This document shows positions 2,277 through 22,300 of a stretch of DNA of 29,683 nt, piece by piece (position 1 is the stretch's first letter; the number at the start of each line of letters is the position of its first letter). Both the position numbers and the translations under genes were made by a program. The notes beneath the pieces are model-generated. The model searched no databases, was not told where the DNA came from, and saw only the letters and a program-made list of their open reading frames with translations. Origin of the DNA: Candidatus Altarchaeum sp. Lineage in GTDB: Archaea; Altiarchaeota; Altiarchaeia; Altiarchaeales; Altiarchaeaceae. The stretch spans positions 1,845 to 31,527 of the forward strand of contig JAGWDQ010000104.1 in assembly GCA_018260615.1 (NCBI GenBank), given 5' to 3'.

Positions 2277-2830
2277 ACGGAGACATAATAAATCTTCATA
2301 AAAATTGTGTTTAAGCCACATAATAATTCAATTTTCATACCTAATTGGTCTATAAAACGAGGGCAAAAAAACATATAGGGTCTGCCGTGTAATTATGAAA
2401 TTTAAATAAATTTTTGTTTCAATTCATTTAGCACAACTAAATTTTATTTTTATATCTGTATTGTTAATTTGTATTCTTATTATTTTAAGATGAAAATTTT
2501 GTTTATCCATGCGGACTACATAAAGATAGAGGTTAAGAAAAAAGCAATCGCAGATGCAGATGAAATAAATGAGAAAAATTTGGAAGCAAAAGAATGTTTA
2601 ATTGTATTTACAGCAGTTGAAAAGGACGACGAGAAAAACAAGACCGAAATTTTAAACAAAACAATAGACAATATTAAGGATGTTTATAGCAAGGTTAATG
2701 CAAAAAGTATAGTTGTTTATCCTTATGCCCACCTTTCAGGCAATCTGGCAAGTCCGAAATTTGCAAAGGAAATGCTTCGGGATATCTATGAAAATTTAAA
2801 ACAACAAAATTTAGGTGTAATTAAGGCACC

Positions 2831-3281
2831 CTATAGCGCCAAAACTCCGTTGGATGTAAAACAGCGGCATCCGTCAAAATGATGGAAACGCCAATAAATA
2901 TCTATTTTGATTAACATAAATATCCTTTTAAATATGCAATACATGAGTATCGGCCAAATTAAAAAAATTAACCAAATTAATTATTACCACATTTATATAA
3001 AATGAACATATAAATGGTAATGTTTATTTTCATCAAATATTAAAATAACTGATAATCATGAAATATTAATATTTTTATATCAAAATCTAATTACATTTTA
3101 CATTATTCCGTAAAATTTGAAACTAATTTTTATTAGTGAGGCACTGTCTTGTTATGAATTATTTTATACTCGGACAAAATGATTTAAAATTATTATCACT
3201 ATATAGGGATGGATTATGGACATATATTGCACATGTCTCCCAGAATTATGCCATAATTCCAACGGCATTTTGACGCTATAA
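2831..3281. mobile_element. 451-bp MITE-like non-autonomous insertion, family unassigned
   Basis: 8-bp target duplication aaggcacc at 2823-2830 and 3282-3289. Imperfect 24-bp terminal inverted repeats, ctatagcgccaaaactccgttgga versus revcomp ttatagcgtcaaaatgccgttgga (20/24). AT-rich interior with no transposase ORF. Confidence 0.88.
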
Positions 3282-3416
3282 AAGGCACCGTTCGGATATT
3301 ATAAAGGGTTTGAAGTCAAATGTAATGATGGGAATTCGCATCCGCTTAGTAAATTATGTGAATCATGCAAAACCAAAGTTGAAAAAGAAAACACAGAAAT
3401 TAAGATAACACAAGGA

Positions 3417-3644
3417 ATGGAAAATGTAATGAAAGTATTATCTTATAATGACGTTGTGGTGGTTAAAACACTATTGTTTCATGGATGTATGAGGAGAAGA
3501 AATGAAATTGCAAGAGGAACCGGAATTTCAAGGTCAAGTTTATCTAATACATTAAGAAAATTGGAAGAAAATAAAGTTGTTGAAATAGACCGAACATTTA
3601 GGGCTCACACAATAAAACTAACTGGCTGGTTTAAATCATTATGA
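3417..3644 (+). CDS. wHTH domain of cassette A, possibly expressed alone after the MITE insertion
   Basis: RNEIARGTGISRSSLSNTLRKLEENKVVEIDR...IKLTGWF is a typical archaeal MarR/TrmB-like winged helix. In-frame ATGs at 3417 and 3429. Confidence 0.6.
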   Translation: MENVMKVLSYNDVVVVKTLLFHGCMRRRNEIARGTGISRSSLSNTLRKLEENKVVEIDRTFRAHTIKLTGWFKSL

Positions 3645-3659
3645 ATCATAAAAAACCAA

Positions 3660-3720
3660 AACAATAAATGGAACAAAAGTTCATATCACATTTAATTTAT
3701 TGTTCGGTACTATTTATATA
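3660..3720 (+). promoter_or_regulatory. Putative operator plus TATA box of the secreted-protein gene (copy A)
   Basis: 10-bp inverted repeat aacaataaat (3660-3669) / atttattgtt (3695-3704) encloses gaac-aaaa-gttc (3671-3682). TTTATATA lies at 3713-3720, 44 bp before ATG 3764. Confidence 0.55.
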
Positions 3721-3763
3721 TCAATTAATAAAAAATAAAATTAAAACATAAAAAAGTAAGAAG

Positions 3764-4159
3764 ATGGATAAATTAAAAACAGGGTTTTTGGTGGTGTTGG
3801 TTGGAATGATAGTAGCAGGAATGGCAATAAGTGGAGTGACAGGATATAAGTACACAGCAAGTTGTAAGCATACCTCAACAAACTGGTTTGGAACGGAAGT
3901 ATACGATGGCGAAGAGGGATATGCTTATTGCGATGTATATCAGGAAAATGGAAATACCTGGAGATGGCATATTGATTCTAGCATAGATGATGAAATAACT
4001 GGAACGTTTTATTCCGCTAGCTTTGGCGTCCAAGCAAAAGGTTATGATGGATATTTGAATGAATGTTGCAGTTGTTATAATGGATATAATGTAGCATGGG
4101 GGTTTGGAGGATATAACAGAAATTGTGGCTATCACGAGTGCATGGCTGCATGTGGATAA
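3764..4159 (+). CDS. Cassette A variable secreted Cys/Tyr/Gly-rich protein (131 aa, ~104 aa mature, 8 Cys)
   Basis: Shared leader MDKLKTGFLVVLVG, hydrophobic core, probable signal peptidase site VTG-Y; the mature part is unique to this cassette. Confidence 0.8.
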   Translation: MDKLKTGFLVVLVGMIVAGMAISGVTGYKYTASCKHTSTNWFGTEVYDGEEGYAYCDVYQENGNTWRWHIDSSIDDEITGTFYSASFGVQAKGYDGYLNECCSCYNGYNVAWGFGGYNRNCGYHECMAACG

Positions 4160-7259: not shown

Positions 7260-7955
7260 ATGAAAATTTTACTCATACATGCGGACTACATAAAGATAGA
7301 GGTTAAGAAAAAAGCAATCGCAGATGCAGATGAAATAAATGAGAAAAATTTGGAAGCAAAAGAATGTTTAATTGTATTTACAGCAGTTGAAAAGGACGAC
7401 GAGAAAAACAAGACCGAAATTTTAAACAAAACAATAGACAATATTAAGGATGTTTATAGCAAGGTTAATGCAAAGTCAGTTGTAATTTATCCTTATGCTC
7501 ACTTGTCAAGCAATCTGGCAAGTCCGAAATTTGCAAAGGAAATGCTTCAGGATATCTATGAAAATTTAAAGGCACAAAATTTAGATGTAATTAAAGCACC
7601 GTTCGGATATTATAAGGGATTTGAGATAAAATATAATGATGGGAATTTGCATCCGCTTAGTAAATTATGTGAATCATGCAAAACCAAAGTTGAAAAAGAA
7701 AACACAGAAATTAAGATAACACAAGGAATGGAAAATGTAATGAAAGTATTATCTTATAATGACGTTGTGGTGGTTAAAACACTATTGTTTCATGGATGTA
7801 TGAGGAGAAGAAATGAAATTGCAAGAGGAACCGGAATTTCAAGGTCAAGTTTATCTAATACATTAAGAAAATTGGAAGAAAATAAAGTTGTTGAAATAGA
7901 CCGAACATTTAGGGCTCACACAATAAAACTAACTGGCTGGTTTAAATCATTATGA
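7260..7955 (+). CDS. Cassette B: intact ThrRS editing domain-wHTH fusion protein (231 aa)
   Basis: HADY, YPYAHLS, APFGYYKGF and HPLS motifs of the archaeal editing domain, then CESC, a linker and the wHTH, in one uninterrupted frame. Confidence 0.9.
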   Translation: MKILLIHADYIKIEVKKKAIADADEINEKNLEAKECLIVFTAVEKDDEKNKTEILNKTIDNIKDVYSKVNAKSVVIYPYAHLSSNLASPKFAKEMLQDIYENLKAQNLDVIKAPFGYYKGFEIKYNDGNLHPLSKLCESCKTKVEKENTEIKITQGMENVMKVLSYNDVVVVKTLLFHGCMRRRNEIARGTGISRSSLSNTLRKLEENKVVEIDRTFRAHTIKLTGWFKSL

Positions 7956-8118
7956 ATCATAAAAAACCAAAACAATAAATGGAACAAAAGTTCATATCAC
8001 ATTTAATTTATTGTTCGGTACTATTTATATATCAATTAATAAAAAATAAAATTAAAACATAAAAAAGTAAGAAGATGGATAAATTAAAAACAGGGTTTTT
8101 GGTGGTGTTGGTTGGAAT
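7649..8118 (+). repeat. 470-bp invariant cassette core, copy B
   Basis: Identical by eye to 3338-3807 and 10367-10836. Confidence 0.95.
7971..8031 (+). promoter_or_regulatory. Putative operator plus TATA box (copy B)
   Basis: Same inverted repeat and TTTATATA as 3660-3720. Confidence 0.55.
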
Positions 8119-9864: not shown

Positions 9865-10076
9865 TCTTTTGTAGTTATTTAAAAACTTTGTTTTAAATTT
9901 TCGAATAACACTGTGGGAGATTTTCACATTTTTACGCATATTTGACTTTTAGGTTTGTGTTGTTAATTTGTAGCTATTCAGCTACCTAATAGGGATAATT
10001 TAAAAATCTTGTAGATTTTCAATAAATTTTTCATCAGAAGTTTTTATTTTTATCTTTGCATTGTTAATTTGTATTC

Positions 10077-10673
10077 TTGGAATGTTTGGTTGTATTTACA
10101 GCAGTTGAAAAGGACGACGAGAAAAACAAGACCGAAATTTTAAACAAAACAATAGACAATATTATGGATGTTTATGGCAAGATTAATGCAAAATCCGTTG
10201 TAATTTATCCTTATGCTCATTTGTCAAGTGATCTGGCAAGTCCGAAATTTGCAAAGGAAATGCTTCAGAATATTTATGAAAATTTAAAGGGACAAAATTT
10301 AGATGTAATTAAGGCACCGTTCGGATATTATAGGGGCTTTGAAGTCAAATGCAATGATGGGAATTCGCATCCGCTTAGTAAATTATGTGAATCATGCAAA
10401 ACCAAAGTTGAAAAAGAAAACACAGAAATTAAGATAACACAAGGAATGGAAAATGTAATGAAAGTATTATCTTATAATGACGTTGTGGTGGTTAAAACAC
10501 TATTGTTTCATGGATGTATGAGGAGAAGAAATGAAATTGCAAGAGGAACCGGAATTTCAAGGTCAAGTTTATCTAATACATTAAGAAAATTGGAAGAAAA
10601 TAAAGTTGTTGAAATAGACCGAACATTTAGGGCTCACACAATAAAACTAACTGGCTGGTTTAAATCATTATGA
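10077..10673 (+). CDS. Cassette C: 5'-truncated ThrRS editing domain-wHTH fusion (possible TTG start; may be a pseudogene)
   Basis: 10046-10079 equals thrS upstream 12071-12104, then jumps to thrS codon 35 (ECL), so the ATG and first 34 codons are deleted. The rest is in frame to the wHTH stop. Confidence 0.7.
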   Translation: MECLVVFTAVEKDDEKNKTEILNKTIDNIMDVYGKINAKSVVIYPYAHLSSDLASPKFAKEMLQNIYENLKGQNLDVIKAPFGYYRGFEVKCNDGNSHPLSKLCESCKTKVEKENTEIKITQGMENVMKVLSYNDVVVVKTLLFHGCMRRRNEIARGTGISRSSLSNTLRKLEENKVVEIDRTFRAHTIKLTGWFKSL

Positions 10674-10836
10674 ATCATAAAAAACCAAAACAATAAATGG
10701 AACAAAAGTTCATATCACATTTAATTTATTGTTCGGTACTATTTATATATCAATTAATAAAAAATAAAATTAAAACATAAAAAAGTAAGAAGATGGATAA
10801 ATTAAAAACAGGGTTTTTGGTGGTGTTGGTTGGAAT
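10367..10836 (+). repeat. 470-bp invariant cassette core, copy C
   Basis: Identical by eye to 3338-3807 and 7649-8118. Confidence 0.95.
10689..10749 (+). promoter_or_regulatory. Putative operator plus TATA box (copy C)
   Basis: Same inverted repeat and TTTATATA as 3660-3720. Confidence 0.55.
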
Positions 10837-12034: not shown

Positions 12035-12151
12035 GAAATTTTTGAATGATGGACTTTATTACACTTTTTGATTTTTATCTTTGCATTGTTAATTTGTATT
12101 CTTGTATTCATAATTACTATTAAATTTTTAAATTTTAAATATTATTTTAGA

Positions 12152-14071
12152 ATGAAAATTTTGTTTATCCATGCGGACTACATAAAGATAGAGGTTAAGA
12201 AAAAAGCAATCGCAGATGCAGATGAAATAAATGAGAAAAATTTGGAAGCAAAAGAATGTTTAATTGTATTTACAGCAGTTGAAAAGGACGACGAGAAAAA
12301 CAAGACCGAAATTTTAAACAAAACAATAGACAATATTAAGGATGTTTATAGCAAGGTTAATGCAAAAAGTATAGTTGTTTATCCTTATGCCCACCTTTCA
12401 GGCAATCTGGCAAGTCCGAAATTTGCAAAGGAAATGCTTCGGGATATCTATGAAAATTTAAAACAACAAAATTTAGGTGTAATTAAGGCACCGTTCGGAT
12501 ATTATAAGGGATTTGAAGTCAAATGTAAGGGACATCCGCTCAGCGAATTAAGCAGAGAAATTAAGGTTGAGGAAAAGGAGGAGGGAAAGGAAAAAGAAAG
12601 GGCTGTTGTTAAGGAAGAAACAAAAATCACAAGAGAGGATGTTGTAAAAGATATAAAATCAGAGTTTTTTGTTCTGGCACCGACAGGAGAGGAATACAAA
12701 ATTGACATGGAAAATTTAAAGGAAAATTTAGACAGGTATGAAATTTTTAACAAATTTCCGACATTAAAGAAGTATATAGTGGCAGAGGAATTGAAGAATG
12801 TGTCATCGGCAGAACCGCCTTCAATAAAGGCAATGGTGCATCTGGAATTGATTGATTATGAGGGAGCAAGTGATTCGGGAAATTTTCGTTTTTATCCGAA
12901 AGGAAATTTAATATTTGATTTGTTAAGCGACTGGGCAGAGGAAATTGCTTTGGAGCGTTTAGGTGCAATGAAGATTGAAACCCCCATCATCTATGACTGG
13001 AGTATGCCTGACATCAGAGAGCAGGGACAGTCATTTCATGAAAGACATTATATGGTAAAAGTTCCGGATGATGAAAATAAGGAATTTGTTTTGAGATTTG
13101 CGGGTGATTTCGGATTGTTCAGGATTATGAAGCAGATAAATATGAGTTATGACCAGTTACCCATAAGAATGTATGAATTTTCAAAGAGTTTCAGGTATGA
13201 AAAGAAAGGAGAGTTAAGCGGACTGAGAAGATTGCGGGCATTCCACATGCCTGATGTGCATTCTTTCTGCAGGGATATTGAACAGGGCTGGGACGAATAT
13301 GAAAATTTATATAAAAGTTATAACGATCTGGCAAACGCAACGGGAATTGAATATGCGGTTGTTTTCAGGATTGTTAAGGAATTTTACGACAAGTATAAAG
13401 AGCGACTTATAAATTTACTCAAATACTCGGATAAGCCGGCATTTATTGAGGTCTTATCAGCAATGAAACATTACTGGGCGGTTAAGCACGAATTTCAGGG
13501 AATTGATTCTGTTGACGGAAACTGTCAGTTAAGCACAGTTCAGCTGGATGTTAAAGATGCAAGTACCTACGGAATAAATTTTGTTGATAATGACGGGAAG
13601 AAAAAGGGCTGCACAATTTGTCATTCGTCAATCGGCTCAATTGAAAGATGGATGTTTGAAATTCTGGAAAACGCTCTGAAGTCAGAAAAACCAATGCTTC
13701 CGTTATGGCTCTCGCCTACGCAATGCAGAATCATTCCCGTCTCAAAGGAATTTTTAAATTTTTCCGATGAAATTATGCGTGAAATTGAAAAAGCAGACAT
13801 CAGGATTGATATTGATGACCGAAATGAAACATTAAGTGCAAAAATCAGAAAGGCAGAGCGGGAATGGACTCCGTATATTGTTGTAATCGGAGAAAAAGAA
13901 AGGGAAAGCAAAAAATTTTCAGTAAGGCGGAGAGAGGATAATCAAAATTTAAATCCGGGAATTTCAGAACTGGCTGATGAAATTAAAAGCAAAACAAAAG
14001 GAATGCCATTCAGGAAATCAAACCTTTCAAAATATTTGTCAAAGAGGCCTATTTTTGTCGGATATACTTAA
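12152..14071 (+). CDS. thrS: Threonine--tRNA ligase, archaeal type with N-terminal editing domain (639 aa)
   Basis: Editing-domain motifs HADY, YPYAHLS and APFGYYKGF..CKGHPLSEL; class II motifs FRYEKKGELSGLRRLRAFHMPDVH and SIGSIERW; anticodon-binding PLWLSPTQ...IVVIGEKE. ATG 12152 is preferred to the ORF-track start 12068. Confidence 0.97.
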   Translation: MKILFIHADYIKIEVKKKAIADADEINEKNLEAKECLIVFTAVEKDDEKNKTEILNKTIDNIKDVYSKVNAKSIVVYPYAHLSGNLASPKFAKEMLRDIYENLKQQNLGVIKAPFGYYKGFEVKCKGHPLSELSREIKVEEKEEGKEKERAVVKEETKITREDVVKDIKSEFFVLAPTGEEYKIDMENLKENLDRYEIFNKFPTLKKYIVAEELKNVSSAEPPSIKAMVHLELIDYEGASDSGNFRFYPKGNLIFDLLSDWAEEIALERLGAMKIETPIIYDWSMPDIREQGQSFHERHYMVKVPDDENKEFVLRFAGDFGLFRIMKQINMSYDQLPIRMYEFSKSFRYEKKGELSGLRRLRAFHMPDVHSFCRDIEQGWDEYENLYKSYNDLANATGIEYAVVFRIVKEFYDKYKERLINLLKYSDKPAFIEVLSAMKHYWAVKHEFQGIDSVDGNCQLSTVQLDVKDASTYGINFVDNDGKKKGCTICHSSIGSIERWMFEILENALKSEKPMLPLWLSPTQCRIIPVSKEFLNFSDEIMREIEKADIRIDIDDRNETLSAKIRKAEREWTPYIVVIGEKERESKKFSVRRREDNQNLNPGISELADEIKSKTKGMPFRKSNLSKYLSKRPIFVGYT

Positions 14072-15156: not shown

Positions 15157-15275
15157 AATTCTTAAATTTTCGCCATATCAATCTGATAATAAATGACATC
15201 ACTGTCCTTATCCACAAGAGCATAAACTAAATTTTTATTCACCGCCTTTGCGAGCCGAATATTTCCCGCGATTTC
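15157..15275 (-). repeat. 119-bp direct-repeat copy of the endA 3' end
   Basis: Matches 17371-17489 (offset 2214) with 2 mismatches and includes the endA stop codon. Confidence 0.93.
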
Positions 15276-15422
15276 ATGCAGCGGCATAATCAGGATAGAA
15301 AGGAACACTTTGCGTTATTTTCAAAGTCGGGCTTTGAGGATGAATTGCGAAATGCGGCATTAAAGAATAAAGAACCGGTCTTATTGTTTGACCTTAATGA
15401 TTTATCAAAGGAATTTGAATAA
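15276..15422 (+). pseudogene. 3' remnant (48 codons) of an ATPase-DUF234 paralog
   Basis: MQRHNQDRKEHFALFSKSGFEDELRNAALKNKEPVLLFDLNDLSKEFE*. DNA 15277-15338 nearly equals 16817-16878 in the neighbouring ATPase gene. Confidence 0.85.
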
Positions 15423-15552: not shown

Positions 15553-16944
15553 ATGGAAAAATTTATCAATAGAAAATACGAACTAGGCGTTCTGGAAGAG
15601 AGATTTTTGTCTGAAAGATCTGAGATGATTATAATATATGGGCGAAGACGGGTTGGAAAGACAGAATTAATACAAAAGTTTTTGACGAATGTAAGTGGAA
15701 TTTACCTGCTGGGCAGGGAGGAATCAGAGTTTGATCAATTACGGAGATTTTCTTCCATAATTGCATCACATTTCAATGATGATGTCTTATTGAAAAATCA
15801 CTTCAGGAGCTGGGATGCTCTCTTTGAGTATATAAACAGGGAATCTGAAAAACGATTGATGCTGGTTATTGATGAATTTCCCTATCTTTTGAAATCTTCC
15901 TCCGCGTTACCCTCAATTATCCAGGATTACTGGGATAATAAATTAAGATATAAAAAACTCTTTTTAGTGTTGTGTGGATCTTCCATAGGGATGATGGAGA
16001 ATCTTATGGGATATACAAGCCCTTTATATGGCAGAAGAACCGGACAATTGTTAATTAAACCATTCAGATTTAAAGACACAATGAAATTTTTTCCGCATTA
16101 TGATATCAAAGAAAAAATTCAGGCATATACAATTTTGGGAGGTACGGCAGCATATCTTTCACAGTTCTCAGATAGTATCTGTATCAAAGAAAACATTAAA
16201 TGTAAAATTTTAAGAAAAGATAATTTCCTGTTCATGGACCCTGTATTTATATTGAGAGAAGAGCTTGATGAGCCGAGATACTATTTTTCTATTCTGAAAT
16301 CAATTGCGAATGGAAACACAAAATTAGGGAACATAGTGAATGATGTTGGATTGCCAAAGGGAATTGTCGGGAAGTATTTGTCTGTGCTAATTGATTTACA
16401 CATAATTGAGAGAGAAGTGCCAGTAACAGAATTCCACCCGCAGAAGACAAGAAAAGGGTTATACAAGATAAAAGATAATTTCTTTAGATTCTGGTTTGGC
16501 TCCGTTTATCCGTATTTAGAATCTATAGAGCAGGGCAATATGGATTTTGTGCTGGATAAAGCAGTAAATTTTATAGAGAGAGTTATTCCATTTACTTATG
16601 AAGATATTTGCAGGGAATTCCTGGTGGAAATAAATCAAAAGAATACTCTTCCTTTTTTATTCTTCCGTGCCGGACGGTGGTGGGATGGAGGTAATGAAAT
16701 TGATATTGTTGCGCTGAATGAAGAAACAAAAGAAATTTTATTTTGCGAATGTAAATGGACAGAAAAAAAGGTCGGATTAAAAATTTTAAATGAATTAAAG
16801 GAAAAAGCAAAATTAGTGCAGTGGCATAATCAGGATAGAAAGGAATACTTTGCGTTATTTTCAAAGTCGGGCTTTGAAGCCGATTTAAAAGATAAGGTCT
16901 TGTTGTTTGACCTTAATGATTTATCCGAAGAATTTGAAAAATAG
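15553..16944 (+). CDS. Archaeal ATPase (ATPase_2 type) with wHTH and C-terminal DUF234 PD-(D/E)xK-like domain
   Basis: FINRKYEL, Walker A GRRRVGKT, Walker B LVIDEF, LYGRRTG, DNFFRFWF, EIDIVA...FCECKW. Confidence 0.9.
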   Translation: MEKFINRKYELGVLEERFLSERSEMIIIYGRRRVGKTELIQKFLTNVSGIYLLGREESEFDQLRRFSSIIASHFNDDVLLKNHFRSWDALFEYINRESEKRLMLVIDEFPYLLKSSSALPSIIQDYWDNKLRYKKLFLVLCGSSIGMMENLMGYTSPLYGRRTGQLLIKPFRFKDTMKFFPHYDIKEKIQAYTILGGTAAYLSQFSDSICIKENIKCKILRKDNFLFMDPVFILREELDEPRYYFSILKSIANGNTKLGNIVNDVGLPKGIVGKYLSVLIDLHIIEREVPVTEFHPQKTRKGLYKIKDNFFRFWFGSVYPYLESIEQGNMDFVLDKAVNFIERVIPFTYEDICREFLVEINQKNTLPFLFFRAGRWWDGGNEIDIVALNEETKEILFCECKWTEKKVGLKILNELKEKAKLVQWHNQDRKEYFALFSKSGFEADLKDKVLLFDLNDLSEEFEK

Positions 16945-17229: not shown

Positions 17230-17375
17230 TTTTCATTTATTTTTATATACCAAATTGCTCCTTTAAATTTTGATATTATAAATTATTTAGTAAATTAATA
17301 ATAAATTAAATTTAAATTAATAATAAATTAACTCTGTATCTCTTTTTTATTTGCTACTTAAACATTCTATAATTC

Positions 17376-17933
17376 TTAAATTTTCGCCATATCAATCTGA
17401 TAATAAATGACATCACTGTCCTTATCCACAAGAGCATAAACTAAATTTTTATTCACCGCTTTTGCGAGCCGAATATTTCCAGCGATTTCGGGAAAAGAAG
17501 AAACATATTCTTCAGGCACAACCTTAACCAAAAATTTTGAATGCATCCTGCTGCTTTGACTGTTATTATTTTCACTCCCTTTTCTTGTTTGGACACCTTC
17601 TTTTTTGTCATAGATTCTAAAATCAACGCCAAATTTAAGTCCCGTTGCCAGCATATAGCCCTTGCTCATTAAATCCCTGAAAACAACATATTTTATGTAA
17701 AAATTTTCATCATTGGTTAAATTTTTCCCTTTTTCCAGCAAGTCCTCAAAATTTATATTTCTGTCTTTATCATAGACCTCTAAAATGCCTTTTTCAATTA
17801 AATATAAACCTTCGGTTACTGAAAATCCGCCTAATTTTTTTGCTTCATCTCCTAAAAAGATATATTTTTCAATTGTGCTTTTATCTCTGCACATTATTCG
17901 TGTTCCTGATAATATTCCTCTGACTTTTTTCAT
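17376..17933 (-). CDS. endA: tRNA-splicing endonuclease
   Basis: TEGLYLIEKG, YVVFRDLMSKGY, GLKFGVDFRIY, HSKFLV and RLAKAVNK...VDKDSDVIYY; the Tyr/His/Lys triad positions appear retained. Confidence 0.93.
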   Translation of the reverse strand: MKKVRGILSGTRIMCRDKSTIEKYIFLGDEAKKLGGFSVTEGLYLIEKGILEVYDKDRNINFEDLLEKGKNLTNDENFYIKYVVFRDLMSKGYMLATGLKFGVDFRIYDKKEGVQTRKGSENNNSQSSRMHSKFLVKVVPEEYVSSFPEIAGNIRLAKAVNKNLVYALVDKDSDVIYYQIDMAKI

Positions 17934-18012
17934 CTGAAAAATTTGAGCATTAAGTAATTATCCATTCCAATTAAAATTTAACCGTAATTTCCAAATTTTT
18001 TAATATTTAAAA

Positions 18013-18189
18013 TTATCCTTCCCTAACAATGTTATCAATTAAAGCAAAGACATCAGGTAAATTTATATCGTCATCATAATTAGCAAATTTATAATATGTC
18101 CTGTTCTGGCTTAAATTTTTGTTTTCGCTTAAATATTCGGGCATTTCAACAGCATCAAAGATGTCGGTTGCTTTCGGTTGTTCAGACAT
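18013..18189 (-). CDS. Stand-alone dockerin-like mini-ORF (58 aa), duplicate of the surface-protein C-terminus; not in the ORF track
   Basis: MSEQPKATDIFDAVEMPEYLSENKNLSQNRTYYKFANYDDDINLPDVFALIDNIVREG*. 18024-18174 matches 19345-19495 (8 mismatches in 151 bp). The ATG lies 2 bp after the ATPase stop. Confidence 0.7.
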   Translation of the reverse strand: MSEQPKATDIFDAVEMPEYLSENKNLSQNRTYYKFANYDDDINLPDVFALIDNIVREG

Positions 18190-19300: not shown

Positions 19301-19333
19301 TTTATCTTTTGTTTTTATTTCTTTCTGTTAAAA

Positions 19334-22300
19334 TTATTGTTCGGTAACAATATTTTCAATTAAAGCAAAGACATCAGGTAAATTTATATCGTCATCATAA
19401 TTAGCAAATTTATAATATGTCCTGTTCCGGCTTAAATTTTTGTTTTCGCTTAGATATTCAAGCATTTCAACGGCATCGAAGATGTCGGTTGCTTTGTTGC
19501 AATCTACTGGACAATTTGTAGCATTCTCGCCGGGGTCACAGAAATTATCTCCACAGAAAGGAGATGTTGAACGGCAGATATTATGAACGCAATGATTACT
19601 CTCGCATTGTGTATCTTGGCTGCAGGTATCATCATTTAATAGTTTATCAGTTAAAATTAAAGGCGATTTTTGTTGAATTGAATAATTCTTTGCCAGTTCA
19701 ACTTCATTGTAATTATCAGGATGGACTATTACAGCATTTGATGTGTCCTGCCAGAACATCGGTGCAAGTTGTTTTGACAGCAATACATCACTTCCGGTTA
19801 TTCTGTATGTTTCCCTGCTTCTGTTTTGAATTTGCCTTTCCTGTTCCGAACTTATTTCAAAATAATCACCTAAAATGTAGGTTACATCTGCATTTGAGAT
19901 GTTTGTAATATTATCCTCTGTAATCACCGTACCATTTATCTTATTAGCAACAACATCTGCAAGCATTTCTCTAACTTTTGAGGCAGAAACACCGCTTGGT
20001 AAAACAAAATAAGTCCTTGGTTTTGTAAGGTAGATTCTTATTTCATGTGAGCCTGGATTATTTGCGTCAAAATTCCATGCAAAACCATTTTCAGAATTAT
20101 CCGGAGAAGGATTAACAAATTCAACATCTACATTGGAATTAACGATGTATTTTAGTCGGTCAAATTGTGATGTTACAAAGTTGTGGCTGAATGTATAATT
20201 CACGATTTGCACATCAAAAACAGCATTTAAAATTATTTGCTTTGATGTGTCATTTAAGTTTTCTTTTGTTAAAGTTATCGGTGTTATATTTTGCAATTCA
20301 AGAGTGTCAATTATTTCCTGTTTTAGTTCGGTATCATTTAAAGTTCCATTATTGTATTTTACATTTATTGTATCTGTTCCTATGGAACTTAATTGAATTA
20401 TCGCGTTAAATTCGGCCGTTGTATTGGTTTTTATTGTTATTTTATAAGTACGGTTTCCAGGGATGAAATTTGAAGGCAAATCGCCAGGAGGTGATTCAGA
20501 GGTTTGTGGAAGTGTAAAATTATCCGCATTATTTGAAATATTTGATGTTCCCATATATGCTTTGCCAGGATAATTCCAACAATTTCCAGATGCGTGTATT
20601 TTACTATATTTCCAAGTAACATCTTCCATTAAGGTTCCATTTGGATAATATGCACACGCTCGAAATACCTCTCCTTCCCAACCTTTTGAATTATCGTATT
20701 TAAAAGGATTGTTAAATTCCCCCCATAGGGTATCTAAATGTATCCACATTCCGTTACCCGTTGCGTTGAAAACTTCTAAAAGTGCATGCCCTCCACCATC
20801 TTGCCATTTTTGTGCACTCTCGTTCCAAACTCGCTTCCAAACAGTTACATATCTTGCAGGCAGACCATAAGACGATGCAAATGAAACACTTAATACTGCC
20901 CAATCTTCACAAACACCCTCTTCTTTGTTTATAATTTCGTAATCCGATGCATGCCATGCTTCACACTTTCCATCACATTTTCTTTCTTTATAAAGATTAT
21001 CAGGAATATTGTTACAGTCACTAGTACAGTCATAATCATAATTTTTGATATATCCATCAGAAATAACCTTCATTTGTCTTGAAACATCTTCCTTAGTATA
21101 TTTTGATGAAAATTCAGGAACAAATTTGTCTGCGGAAAATCCATAATTGGAAATATTTAAAAAGGAATTATTATAGATTGTATAGTTATAAAAAAAGTAA
21201 TTTGGATAAGTATATGAGTATTTTCTCAATTGTTCATCATTTGGATGAATTTTTTTAAGTCCTCCTAATCCCCCTGTATTATAACAATGATAATTTGTCA
21301 CTCCTCCTGGACAACTGCATTCACTAATATTAACCGTGCAGGTATCAGGATACCATTGCGTCCCGTCATCTTTTATACAACAATAAACATTTTGAATATA
21401 TCCCGGAACAGTCGTAGTATTAATAAATAGTTCATACTCTGATGGTGGTTTAAATAAATTATAAACTTTTCTATATAGTCCCGCATTTATCTGCGTTTTT
21501 CCGCTTATATTTACTTTTTCAAAATAGTTAACATATTTATCTTTCGTAATCATTATTCCGTACTCTCCCTGCTGCAACTTATAAGTAAATATTCCATTTA
21601 TTTTGGTCTGTCCAATTGCAGTTCCGTTGACATAAATAATTGCTCCGTCTATTGGTTCATTTGTTATGTTATCTACAACCACTAACATAAAATTGTAATC
21701 TTCTTCCTCAACAGATATGTTTCTTGATATTTTGTTATTTGATTCGTTACTTTCAGCAATCACATTTAAAGAATCCGCAGTAATTTCAATTGTATAATTT
21801 CCGAAATTAGTCGGAATAAAACTAAATGATAATTGATTAAAATATTTATTTGACATATTTATATATTTTGTCTCGTTTATTATAATGGTTCCATTAAGAA
21901 CAACTTTGAACAAAACACTAACATTTTTTAATTCCTGAACATAAATGCCTGCATCATTTTTAACGGTCAGATTTATTGAAATTTCCTGATTTTGTTTCCC
22001 GCTGAGAGGCATAGATGCCCCCACATATAAATCAGGCATAGGTCTTAAAGAAATATATATTGCCCCATAAGAATCATTATTATATGAATAAGTGGAGCTA
22101 TTATTTATATGCCCTTCCTTCTCCGCATAGAAGGTGTAATTTCCTGACGCGAGGCTGAAGAATCTTACACACCCACTTGCATTTGTATTGTTTGATGATA
22201 TTAGGATACTCCCATTATAAATTTTAACTAATGTATCATTCAGCGGCGTAACTGGCATCTCACTGTCGTCATATACACAAACTTCTAAGTATGTAGATTT

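Follow-up and report, generated by a model that had tools for sequence, protein, structure and literature searches.

The fusion gene and its cassettes

The DNA analysed here is a stretch of 29,683 nucleotides (the window) of contig JAGWDQ010000104.1 from Candidatus Altarchaeum sp. (assembly GCA_018260615.1). Three related cassettes, A, B and C, lie upstream of the resident gene for threonyl-tRNA synthetase (ThrRS), thrS, and in each of them sequence of a ThrRS-type editing domain (ED) is followed by a winged helix-turn-helix (wHTH). The copy in cassette B, denoted P0001, is the only undamaged one of the three and forms an unbroken frame of 231 codons (231 amino acids) from its ATG. In Pfam, the family PF08915 (tRNA-Thr_ED) matches residues 1-137 with an E value of 1e-45 and 155.6 bits at a cutoff of 30.2. 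The class II core and anticodon-binding families (PF00587 and PF03129), both present in the resident thrS, are absent from P0001 in the same analysis. Nine HTH families, including MarR_2, HTH_20, HTH_Crp_2, HxlR, TrmB and IclR, match residues 165-215 with E values of 5e-4 to 9e-3, all of them under the curated cutoffs.

An AlphaFold2 (AF2) model of P0001, built from a 22-sequence alignment, predicts two confident domains, with a predicted local distance difference test (pLDDT) score of >90 for the ED and ~89 for the wHTH. Between the domains, at residues 129-149, the predicted confidence falls to <50. The best Foldseek match is the editing domain of P. abyssi ThrRS (E value 1.6e-15, TM-score by target 0.83-0.88), with 46% identity and a root-mean-square deviation of 1.8 Å to the N-terminal domain (NTD) of that enzyme; identity to the editing domain of M. 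jannaschii ThrRS is 41-42%. The remainder of P0001 found a weak match only, to the MarR-type protein ScoC. A prediction of a two-copy complex, made without control runs, gave a score of 0.25 against a mark of 0.32, which speaks neither for a dimer nor against one. Open reading frame (ORF), PF08915 match and two-domain model agree, and the in-frame fusion described in an earlier note on this DNA is real.

The sequence details of that note were borne out as well. The junction is common to all three cassettes and CESC follows the ED in each of them. Relative to KCKGHPLSEL in thrS, three residues are inserted before HPLS and the glutamate is exchanged for lysine (KCNDGNSHPLSKL in cassettes A and C, KYNDGNLHPLSKL in B), and cassette C reads YYRGF. 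The note had further considered that a C-x5-H-x5-C-x2-C pattern might bind metal. This spacing is present in A and C, but the idea of a metal site is unsupported beyond the CxxC that every copy has: the other ligands are spaced differently from copy to copy, with C-x6-H in the two orthologues elsewhere, and cassette B lacks the first cysteine, which is a tyrosine there.

Damage to two of the three copies, likewise stated before, was confirmed. In cassette A the 5′ part of the ED is 100% identical to thrS and is interrupted at the KAP codons by a 451-bp miniature inverted-repeat transposable element (MITE), which has inverted ends of 23 nt (TATAGCGCCAAAACTCCGTTGGA) and a target duplication of 8 bp (AAGGCACC). 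Four copies of this element, 100% identical, and a partial one at a contig end are found in the genome; as the four are identical, the MITE was active recently. Cassette C lacks codons 1-34, and a leader motif is joined directly to ED codon 35. This motif, TTTTATTTTTAT.T.TG.ATTGTTAATTTGTATTCTT, has five genomic occurrences, all on contig C104 and upstream of thrS copies.

A block of 470 bp, identical in the three cassettes, extends from the ED tail (starting at the HPLSKL codons) across the junction, the wHTH and a 119-bp intergenic region to codon 14 of the downstream secreted-protein gene (MDKLKTGFLVVLVG). Past the block follow three unrelated secreted-protein bodies, so that the array has a constant-leader, variable-body layout. 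By self-comparison of the window with blastn, thrS 5′ sequence occurs at four places upstream of the thrS ATG at 12152, in addition to an 80-bp copy at the left edge. A 100-N scaffold gap adjoins this edge just upstream of the window (C104:1745-1844), with thrS leader on both sides, so that neither the 80-bp copy there nor the actual count of cassettes is certain. A 21-nt leader motif (GTATTGTTAATTTGTATTCTT), found five times and on this contig only, was considered as a site-specific recombination site and rejected, as it simply belongs to the thrS upstream sequence that was duplicated. The cassettes showed no recombinase gene among the ORFs that were scanned. The coordinates are compiled in Table 1. 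Shorter duplications (119-168 bp, 77-98% identity) are present elsewhere in the window, at 15157-15275 and 17371-17489, 18007-18174 and 19328-19495, and 15277-15422 and 16817-16941; they may represent gene termini duplicated around cargo, as at thrS.

Table 1. Coordinates of the fusion gene, its parts and related features (window numbering unless a contig is named)
Feature	Position	Strand	Basis
Intact fusion gene P0001 (cassette B)	7260..7955	+	ORF list and translation, Pfam, AF2, Foldseek
ThrRS-type editing domain, codons 1-137	7260..7670	+	PF08915, P. abyssi identity, segment identities
Junction and linker, codons 138-156 (CESC, then K/E-rich)	7671..7727	+	codon comparison with thrS and the P0020 gene; pLDDT
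wHTH, codons 157-231, MarR_2/DUF7343-like, ending LTGWFKSL	7728..7952	+	sub-threshold Pfam matches, homologues
Cassette A copy (ED 5′ part 2490-2830, MITE 2831-3281, rest 3290-3644)	2490..3644	+
Cassette C copy, 5′-truncated to codon 35, K119R (YYRGF)	10080..10673	+	sequence comparison
Resident full-length thrS (ED, class II core, anticodon-binding domain)	12152..14071	+	Pfam, blastn
470-bp block, 100% identical	7649..8118 (B), 3338-3807 (A), 10367-10836 (C)	+	exact comparison, blastn
GAAC-N4-GTTC palindrome, candidate operator	7982..7993	.	pattern search
Leader motif sites	1-38, 2442-2479, 10042-10079, 12067-12104; C104:1690-1726		

Origin and distribution of the fusion

That the ED represents a duplicated thrS 5′ end is well supported by the identities of its segments. 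Over ED nucleotides 1-340 the sequences cluster by genome: cassette B is 92-96% identical to its own thrS versus 83% to the fusion of Ca. Altarchaeum GA_1_1, and the GA_1_1 fusion shares 89-92% with its own thrS. Over nucleotides 341-411 the grouping is by gene type, with 77-94% identity among fusions and 89-97% among thrS genes, and the wHTH part of the source genome is 88-89% identical to that of the two other fusion lineages. Together these values show that the junction was founded once and that thrS alleles, resident or foreign, have since repeatedly exchanged sequence with the 5′ part. The cassettes may have been inserted and reshuffled through homologous recombination of the Campbell type, for which the thrS 5′ end would serve as a landing pad. 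The earlier note had named a by-product of the integration site as an outcome that would speak against its proposal. As a description of origin this fits well, but the present function of the gene is not settled by how it arose.

The winged helix has a different source. An exhaustive HMMER search with residues 138-231 against 1.84 billion cluster representatives returned 163 homologues, nearly all with the wHTH at the extreme C-terminus. At least one transmembrane (TM) segment is predicted in 134 of the 150 best homologues. Among these 150, an ED occurs in the fusion cluster only, in which no hydrophobic (TM) segment was found; matches to CarboxypepD_reg were obtained in the homologues only, together with matches to DUF7343/MarR_2. 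The source genome itself encodes two wHTH paralogues (44-53% identity) as the C-termini of membrane proteins of 319 and 383 amino acids, and a secreted-protein gene follows each of them. Their build comprises a signal/TM segment, a CarboxypepD_reg-like ectodomain, a TM segment, a K/E-rich linker and a wHTH ending in LTGWFKSL. Closer relatives from other assemblies (P0020, P0043 and P0048, 64-71% identity) have the same membrane build and contain the motif ITQGMEN(V/I)M internally. Across these three and the protein of locus L006, identity to the wHTH of P0001 is 53-71%, and the C-terminal end conforms to LTxWFxSL. No characterisation of this membrane-anchored family was found.

At the codon level, homology to thrS stops at HPLS(K)L and homology to the regulator family begins around VEKENTEIKITQG, from where the fusion corresponds to the cytoplasmic linker of the membrane regulators. 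About seven codons (CESCKTK) separate the two. On the downstream side the resemblance extends beyond the coding region, as the wHTH together with the intergenic DNA is 74.6% identical at the nucleotide level to the P0020 locus. Downstream of the palindrome listed in Table 1, a TATA box (TTTATATA, 8024-8031) follows after 30 bp and the ATG at 8075 after 82 bp. GAAC-N4-GTTC recurs between wHTH stop and TATA box at three loci, namely in the window, at the P0020 locus and at the contig C100 paralogue (the paralogous loci being labelled L029 and L006); the three palindromes inside the window are copies of each other and were counted once. Its retention at three loci supports the view that regulator and target may have moved as a whole unit.

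The complete architecture is rare. A search for an editing domain combined with an HTH, as envisaged in the earlier note, recovered three clusters among ~5.8 billion proteins, all from Altiarchaeum: the source genome, GA_1_1 (82% identity) and a JGI contig (84% identity). In GA_1_1 and on the JGI contig the fusion gene is followed by a gene for a protein of ~88 amino acids, unnamed in Pfam, and then by a LolA-like gene. Among 41 genomes of the class, full-length matches were limited to the source genome and GA_1_1. A metagenome scan with P0001 residues 100-231 gave no further fusion and two weak wHTH-only matches, a scan of a genome collection for further fusions gave the GA_1_1 locus only, and a literature search yielded no report of PF08915 combined with an HTH. 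The gene looks like a lineage-restricted, young product of recombination that is intact in at least three Altiarchaeum lineages.

The junction might also have been created during assembly, had reads from thrS and from a regulator gene been joined into a chimera in this metagenome-assembled genome (MAG), which is rich in repeats. The 100-N gap and the 80-bp repeat at the left edge are in line with this explanation, as are repeats of 470-860 bp at 97-100% identity, which are hard to assemble. However, the junction recurs in independent NCBI, JGI and ENA assemblies at 82-94% protein identity, each with its own substitutions, and we consider an assembly artefact extremely improbable.

The editing site and the sensor proposal

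The state of the editing site was assessed over 35 columns with a conservation of 85% or more among 56 outgroup EDs. In the fusions 3-6 of these columns deviate, in the thrS genes of the genus 0-1. Two exchanges, G127D (the glycine of KGHP) and E132K (equivalent to P. abyssi E134), are present in all fusions and affect residues that are invariant in real EDs. The water-positioning lysine (P. abyssi K121) is replaced in the intact GA_1_1 orthologue (K119N) and in cassette C (K119R), and the JGI orthologue carries G116E. The pocket is otherwise largely retained, including H81 and the YPYAHLS and PFGYY motifs. In the thrS of another genome of the genus (G002, L027:560-1000) the ED is read in three frames, which points to frameshift errors in that MAG or else to damage in the gene itself.

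The editing domain of P. abyssi ThrRS crystallises as a biological dimer, across which E134 was reported to touch the α-amino group of the substrate; substrate recognition as well as the oxyanion hole were found to be mostly main-chain (PMC4491819). The variants E134A and Y120A are still active, while K121M is severely compromised in activity yet binds substrate tightly (PMC4491819). Judged from the exchanges described above, conserved Ser-tRNA(Thr) deacylase activity of the fusion ED is unlikely. Loss of the lysine is nevertheless compatible with ligand binding, because K121M binds tightly and recognition is largely main-chain.

The earlier note had proposed a one-component regulator in which the ED is repurposed as a sensor of aminoacyl-adenosine, mischarged tRNA or D-amino acids that controls the effector promoter. 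In the form considered here, the ligand would be aminoacyl-adenosine, mischarged tRNA or D-aminoacyl-tRNA, and DNA binding by the wHTH would respond to it, linking translation fidelity to the secreted cassettes. Retention of the fold and of most of the pocket is consistent with this proposal, and the loss of the lysine in one orthologue would fit a binding-only module comparable to K121M (PMC4491819). Proteins of the PF08915 fold have, moreover, repeatedly been recruited outside ThrRS, with >365 clusters of free-standing 136-residue paralogues. Against a sensor stands E132K, a charge reversal at the residue that holds the amino group, in a segment that is remodelled by G127D and an insertion of 3-4 residues and is modelled by AF2 with low confidence. 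Active-site positions vary among orthologues (K, R or N; G or E), which would not be expected of a conserved sensor. In addition, thrS repeatedly overwrites the ED sequence, ED-broken copies and a nonsense allele persist, and EDs are not associated with regulators in any independent case, as the distant pairs of ED-like and ArsR genes sit in ars-type operons. We therefore regard a sensory ED as unlikely. The regulator part of the proposal is reasonable in view of the conserved fusion, the purifying selection described below and the neighbouring conserved palindrome and TATA box; the sensor part is not supported, given the recombination with thrS, the loss of invariant residues in every fusion and the ED-broken copies. 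A more specific variant, in which the ED was exapted as a catalytically weakened binder of the aminoacyl-adenosine end or of tRNA, so that the fusion would couple tRNA charging or fidelity to swappable secreted proteins, is quite improbable.

Free-standing EDs were encountered in two kinds. The 136-residue PF08915 proteins occur in Altiarchaeota, Bathyarchaeota and Halobacteriota and in one record labelled Roizmanbacteria, with loci in the same class at L020:2061-2813 (G020) and L021:1965-2710 (G022) and further ones at L037-L044, and lack the lysine of the YYK motif. Two of three further contexts sampled are arsenic-resistance-like operons with ArsR, ArsP permease, thioredoxin, S-adenosylmethionine (SAM) methyltransferase, DsrE and low-molecular-weight phosphatase genes; in the third, the gene lies beside AsnC-type genes and a methyltransferase. 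The pairing of such an ED-like gene with an ArsR wHTH gene in two distant genomes of the class was considered as independent support for a partnership of ED and wHTH and rejected, given the wide distribution of the family and its ars-like operons. The second kind, of 157-179 residues, carries a four-cysteine end (ICPM..EC...CP.C) directly after KGHPMA (L023:1514-2053 and L024:1401-1874, both on the minus strand). At L024 it is located between two genes read, without a family search, as PP-loop ATPase-like; none such was seen at L023.

Present function and significance

Selection was evaluated separately for the parts of the gene. Over the fusion-specific codons 114-231, three orthologue pairs show an excess of synonymous changes (p = 1.4e-5, 3.5e-4 and 9e-3). 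The excess is also seen over codons 114-156 alone (p = 0.014-0.059), a segment that precedes the internal Met157 and is not shared with thrS, and indels between orthologues preserve the frame. The fusion-specific part is under purifying selection. For ED codons 1-137, the ratio of nonsynonymous to synonymous rates (dN/dS), which the earlier note had put forward as a check, is 0.19-0.32 between fusions and 0.12-0.20 between thrS genes. Because of the recombination with thrS, no weight is placed on these ED values.

Of the readings of the present function, a soluble wHTH regulator of the cassette promoters, born by recombination, is favoured, and we hold it with roughly even confidence; in it the ED would contribute expression signals and dimerisation. 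Its origin is well supported: the 5′ end of the essential thrS gene was duplicated, including the start codon, the ED and, in some copies, promoter-proximal DNA, and the duplicate was joined in frame, within about seven codons, to the linker and wHTH of the membrane regulator family, whose downstream unit of palindrome, TATA box and secreted-protein gene start came along. The soluble wHTH product may bind as a dimer to the palindrome that precedes each of the three cassette genes, and as the promoter block is identical, the one intact copy in cassette B could serve all three cassettes. The ED would stand in for the membrane part by providing expression signals and probably a dimer interface, the latter in view of the biological dimer that the N-terminal domain of ThrRS forms in crystals. 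At the DNA level, the first ~340 nt of the ED may act as a homology tract for continued recombination between cassettes and thrS.

Several observations weigh against this regulator and in part favour a different explanation, in which the ED is a scar, i.e. a leftover thrS homology arm. If anything functions, it would then be the wHTH alone, made from Met157; alternatively, the conserved block would merely provide homology for recombination. ED-internal damage was found in four of the eight copies inspected. A fifth, the second GA_1_1 copy, carries an internal deletion from the ED into the wHTH and is the sole copy with a damaged wHTH. Since a broken ED is often combined with a retained wHTH, the ED may be dispensable. 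In the sister strain GCA_017973915.1 a GGA-to-TGA exchange at Gly116 (L036:8433-8435) divides an otherwise near-identical gene into a 144-residue ED piece and a 75-residue wHTH ORF; this allele is either a polymorphic pseudogene or a sequencing error. A 75-residue wHTH could be made from Met157, and genes for such wHTH-only proteins have been called in other assemblies; translation of the fusion as one chain is itself inferred. The low dN/dS of ED codons 1-113 is uninformative, since these codons are refreshed from functional thrS alleles. Finally, of four species of the genus whose genomes were searched, two (65% and 87% complete) yielded no fusion; there the query matched thrS only and, in one of them, also a membrane wHTH paralogue. 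That ED nucleotides 1-340 follow the resident thrS, and that residues invariant in real EDs are missing from every fusion, is likewise expected of a scar.

Other results are difficult to reconcile with a scar. The synonymous excess over codons 114-156 and the frame-keeping indels affect a segment that a wHTH started at Met157 would leave untranslated. The methionines of GMEN(V/I)M are internal to the full-length membrane homologues and hence provide no evidence for a start codon. Three lineages each keep one intact copy at ~15% nucleotide divergence. The GA_1_1 fusion, moreover, is not simply an attL-like scar, as fusion and thrS are on separate contigs and thrS is preceded by 13 kb of unrelated DNA. 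On balance the scar is a possible explanation, ranked after the soluble regulator and before the sensor.

Comparison with known systems clarifies what is unusual about the gene. Its ED resembles the archaeal ThrRS NTD (PF08915; PDB 1Y2Q, 2HL1 and 3PD3; DTD-like fold) in sequence and fold, but differs in the missing synthetase core and anticodon-binding domain, in the insertion of 3-4 residues before HPLS, in the replacement of G127 and E132 in all copies and in the variable lysine equivalent to K121. With the membrane-anchored wHTH proteins (P0020, P0048, P0059 and the two paralogues) the fusion shares the wHTH, ITQGMENVM, the LTGWFKSL end and the downstream layout of palindrome, TATA box and secreted-protein gene, whereas signal peptide, ectodomain and TM segment are absent and the ED is found in their place. 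ToxR and CadC are membrane-bound one-component regulators in which, as in the donor family, a single bitopic protein carries both a DNA-binding winged helix and a domain outside the cytoplasm. In the donor family the order is reversed, with the wHTH at the C-terminus, and there is no sequence relationship; the fusion itself is predicted to be soluble. Modules derived from aminoacyl-tRNA synthetases (aaRSs) also function outside synthetases in AlaX, YbaK/ProX, crenarchaeal ThrRS-E and DTD, which are free-standing editing-domain paralogues and trans-editing enzymes, and in GCN2, where a HisRS-like domain serves as tRNA sensor in a kinase regulator. Unlike P0001, none of these was found fused to a DNA-binding domain. 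The cassette layout has a parallel in the lpl cluster of S. aureus, a tandem paralogue cluster for which an evolving unit of ORF 3′ end, intergenic region and 5′ end of the next ORF was reported (PMC2568036). The 470-bp block likewise spans a gene 3′ end, an intergenic region and 14 codons of the next gene between variable bodies; the array differs in belonging to an archaeon and in that its constant unit includes the duplicated 5′ end of a housekeeping gene.

In summary, the fusion appears to represent a datable gene birth by domain capture in an uncultivated groundwater archaeon, in which the first domain of an essential gene, together with its promoter-proximal end, was combined with the output domain of a membrane regulator. 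It also suggests that a homology-driven, integrase-free cassette array can yield new ORFs at its joints. Should the ED bind a ligand or tRNA, the protein would belong to a new class of transcriptional sensors, and, if the sensor proposal were true, this would be the first known case in which an aaRS editing domain senses the signal for a DNA-binding regulator. Should it bind neither, the gene would still constitute a natural experiment in which a dimerisation module was swapped onto a winged helix.

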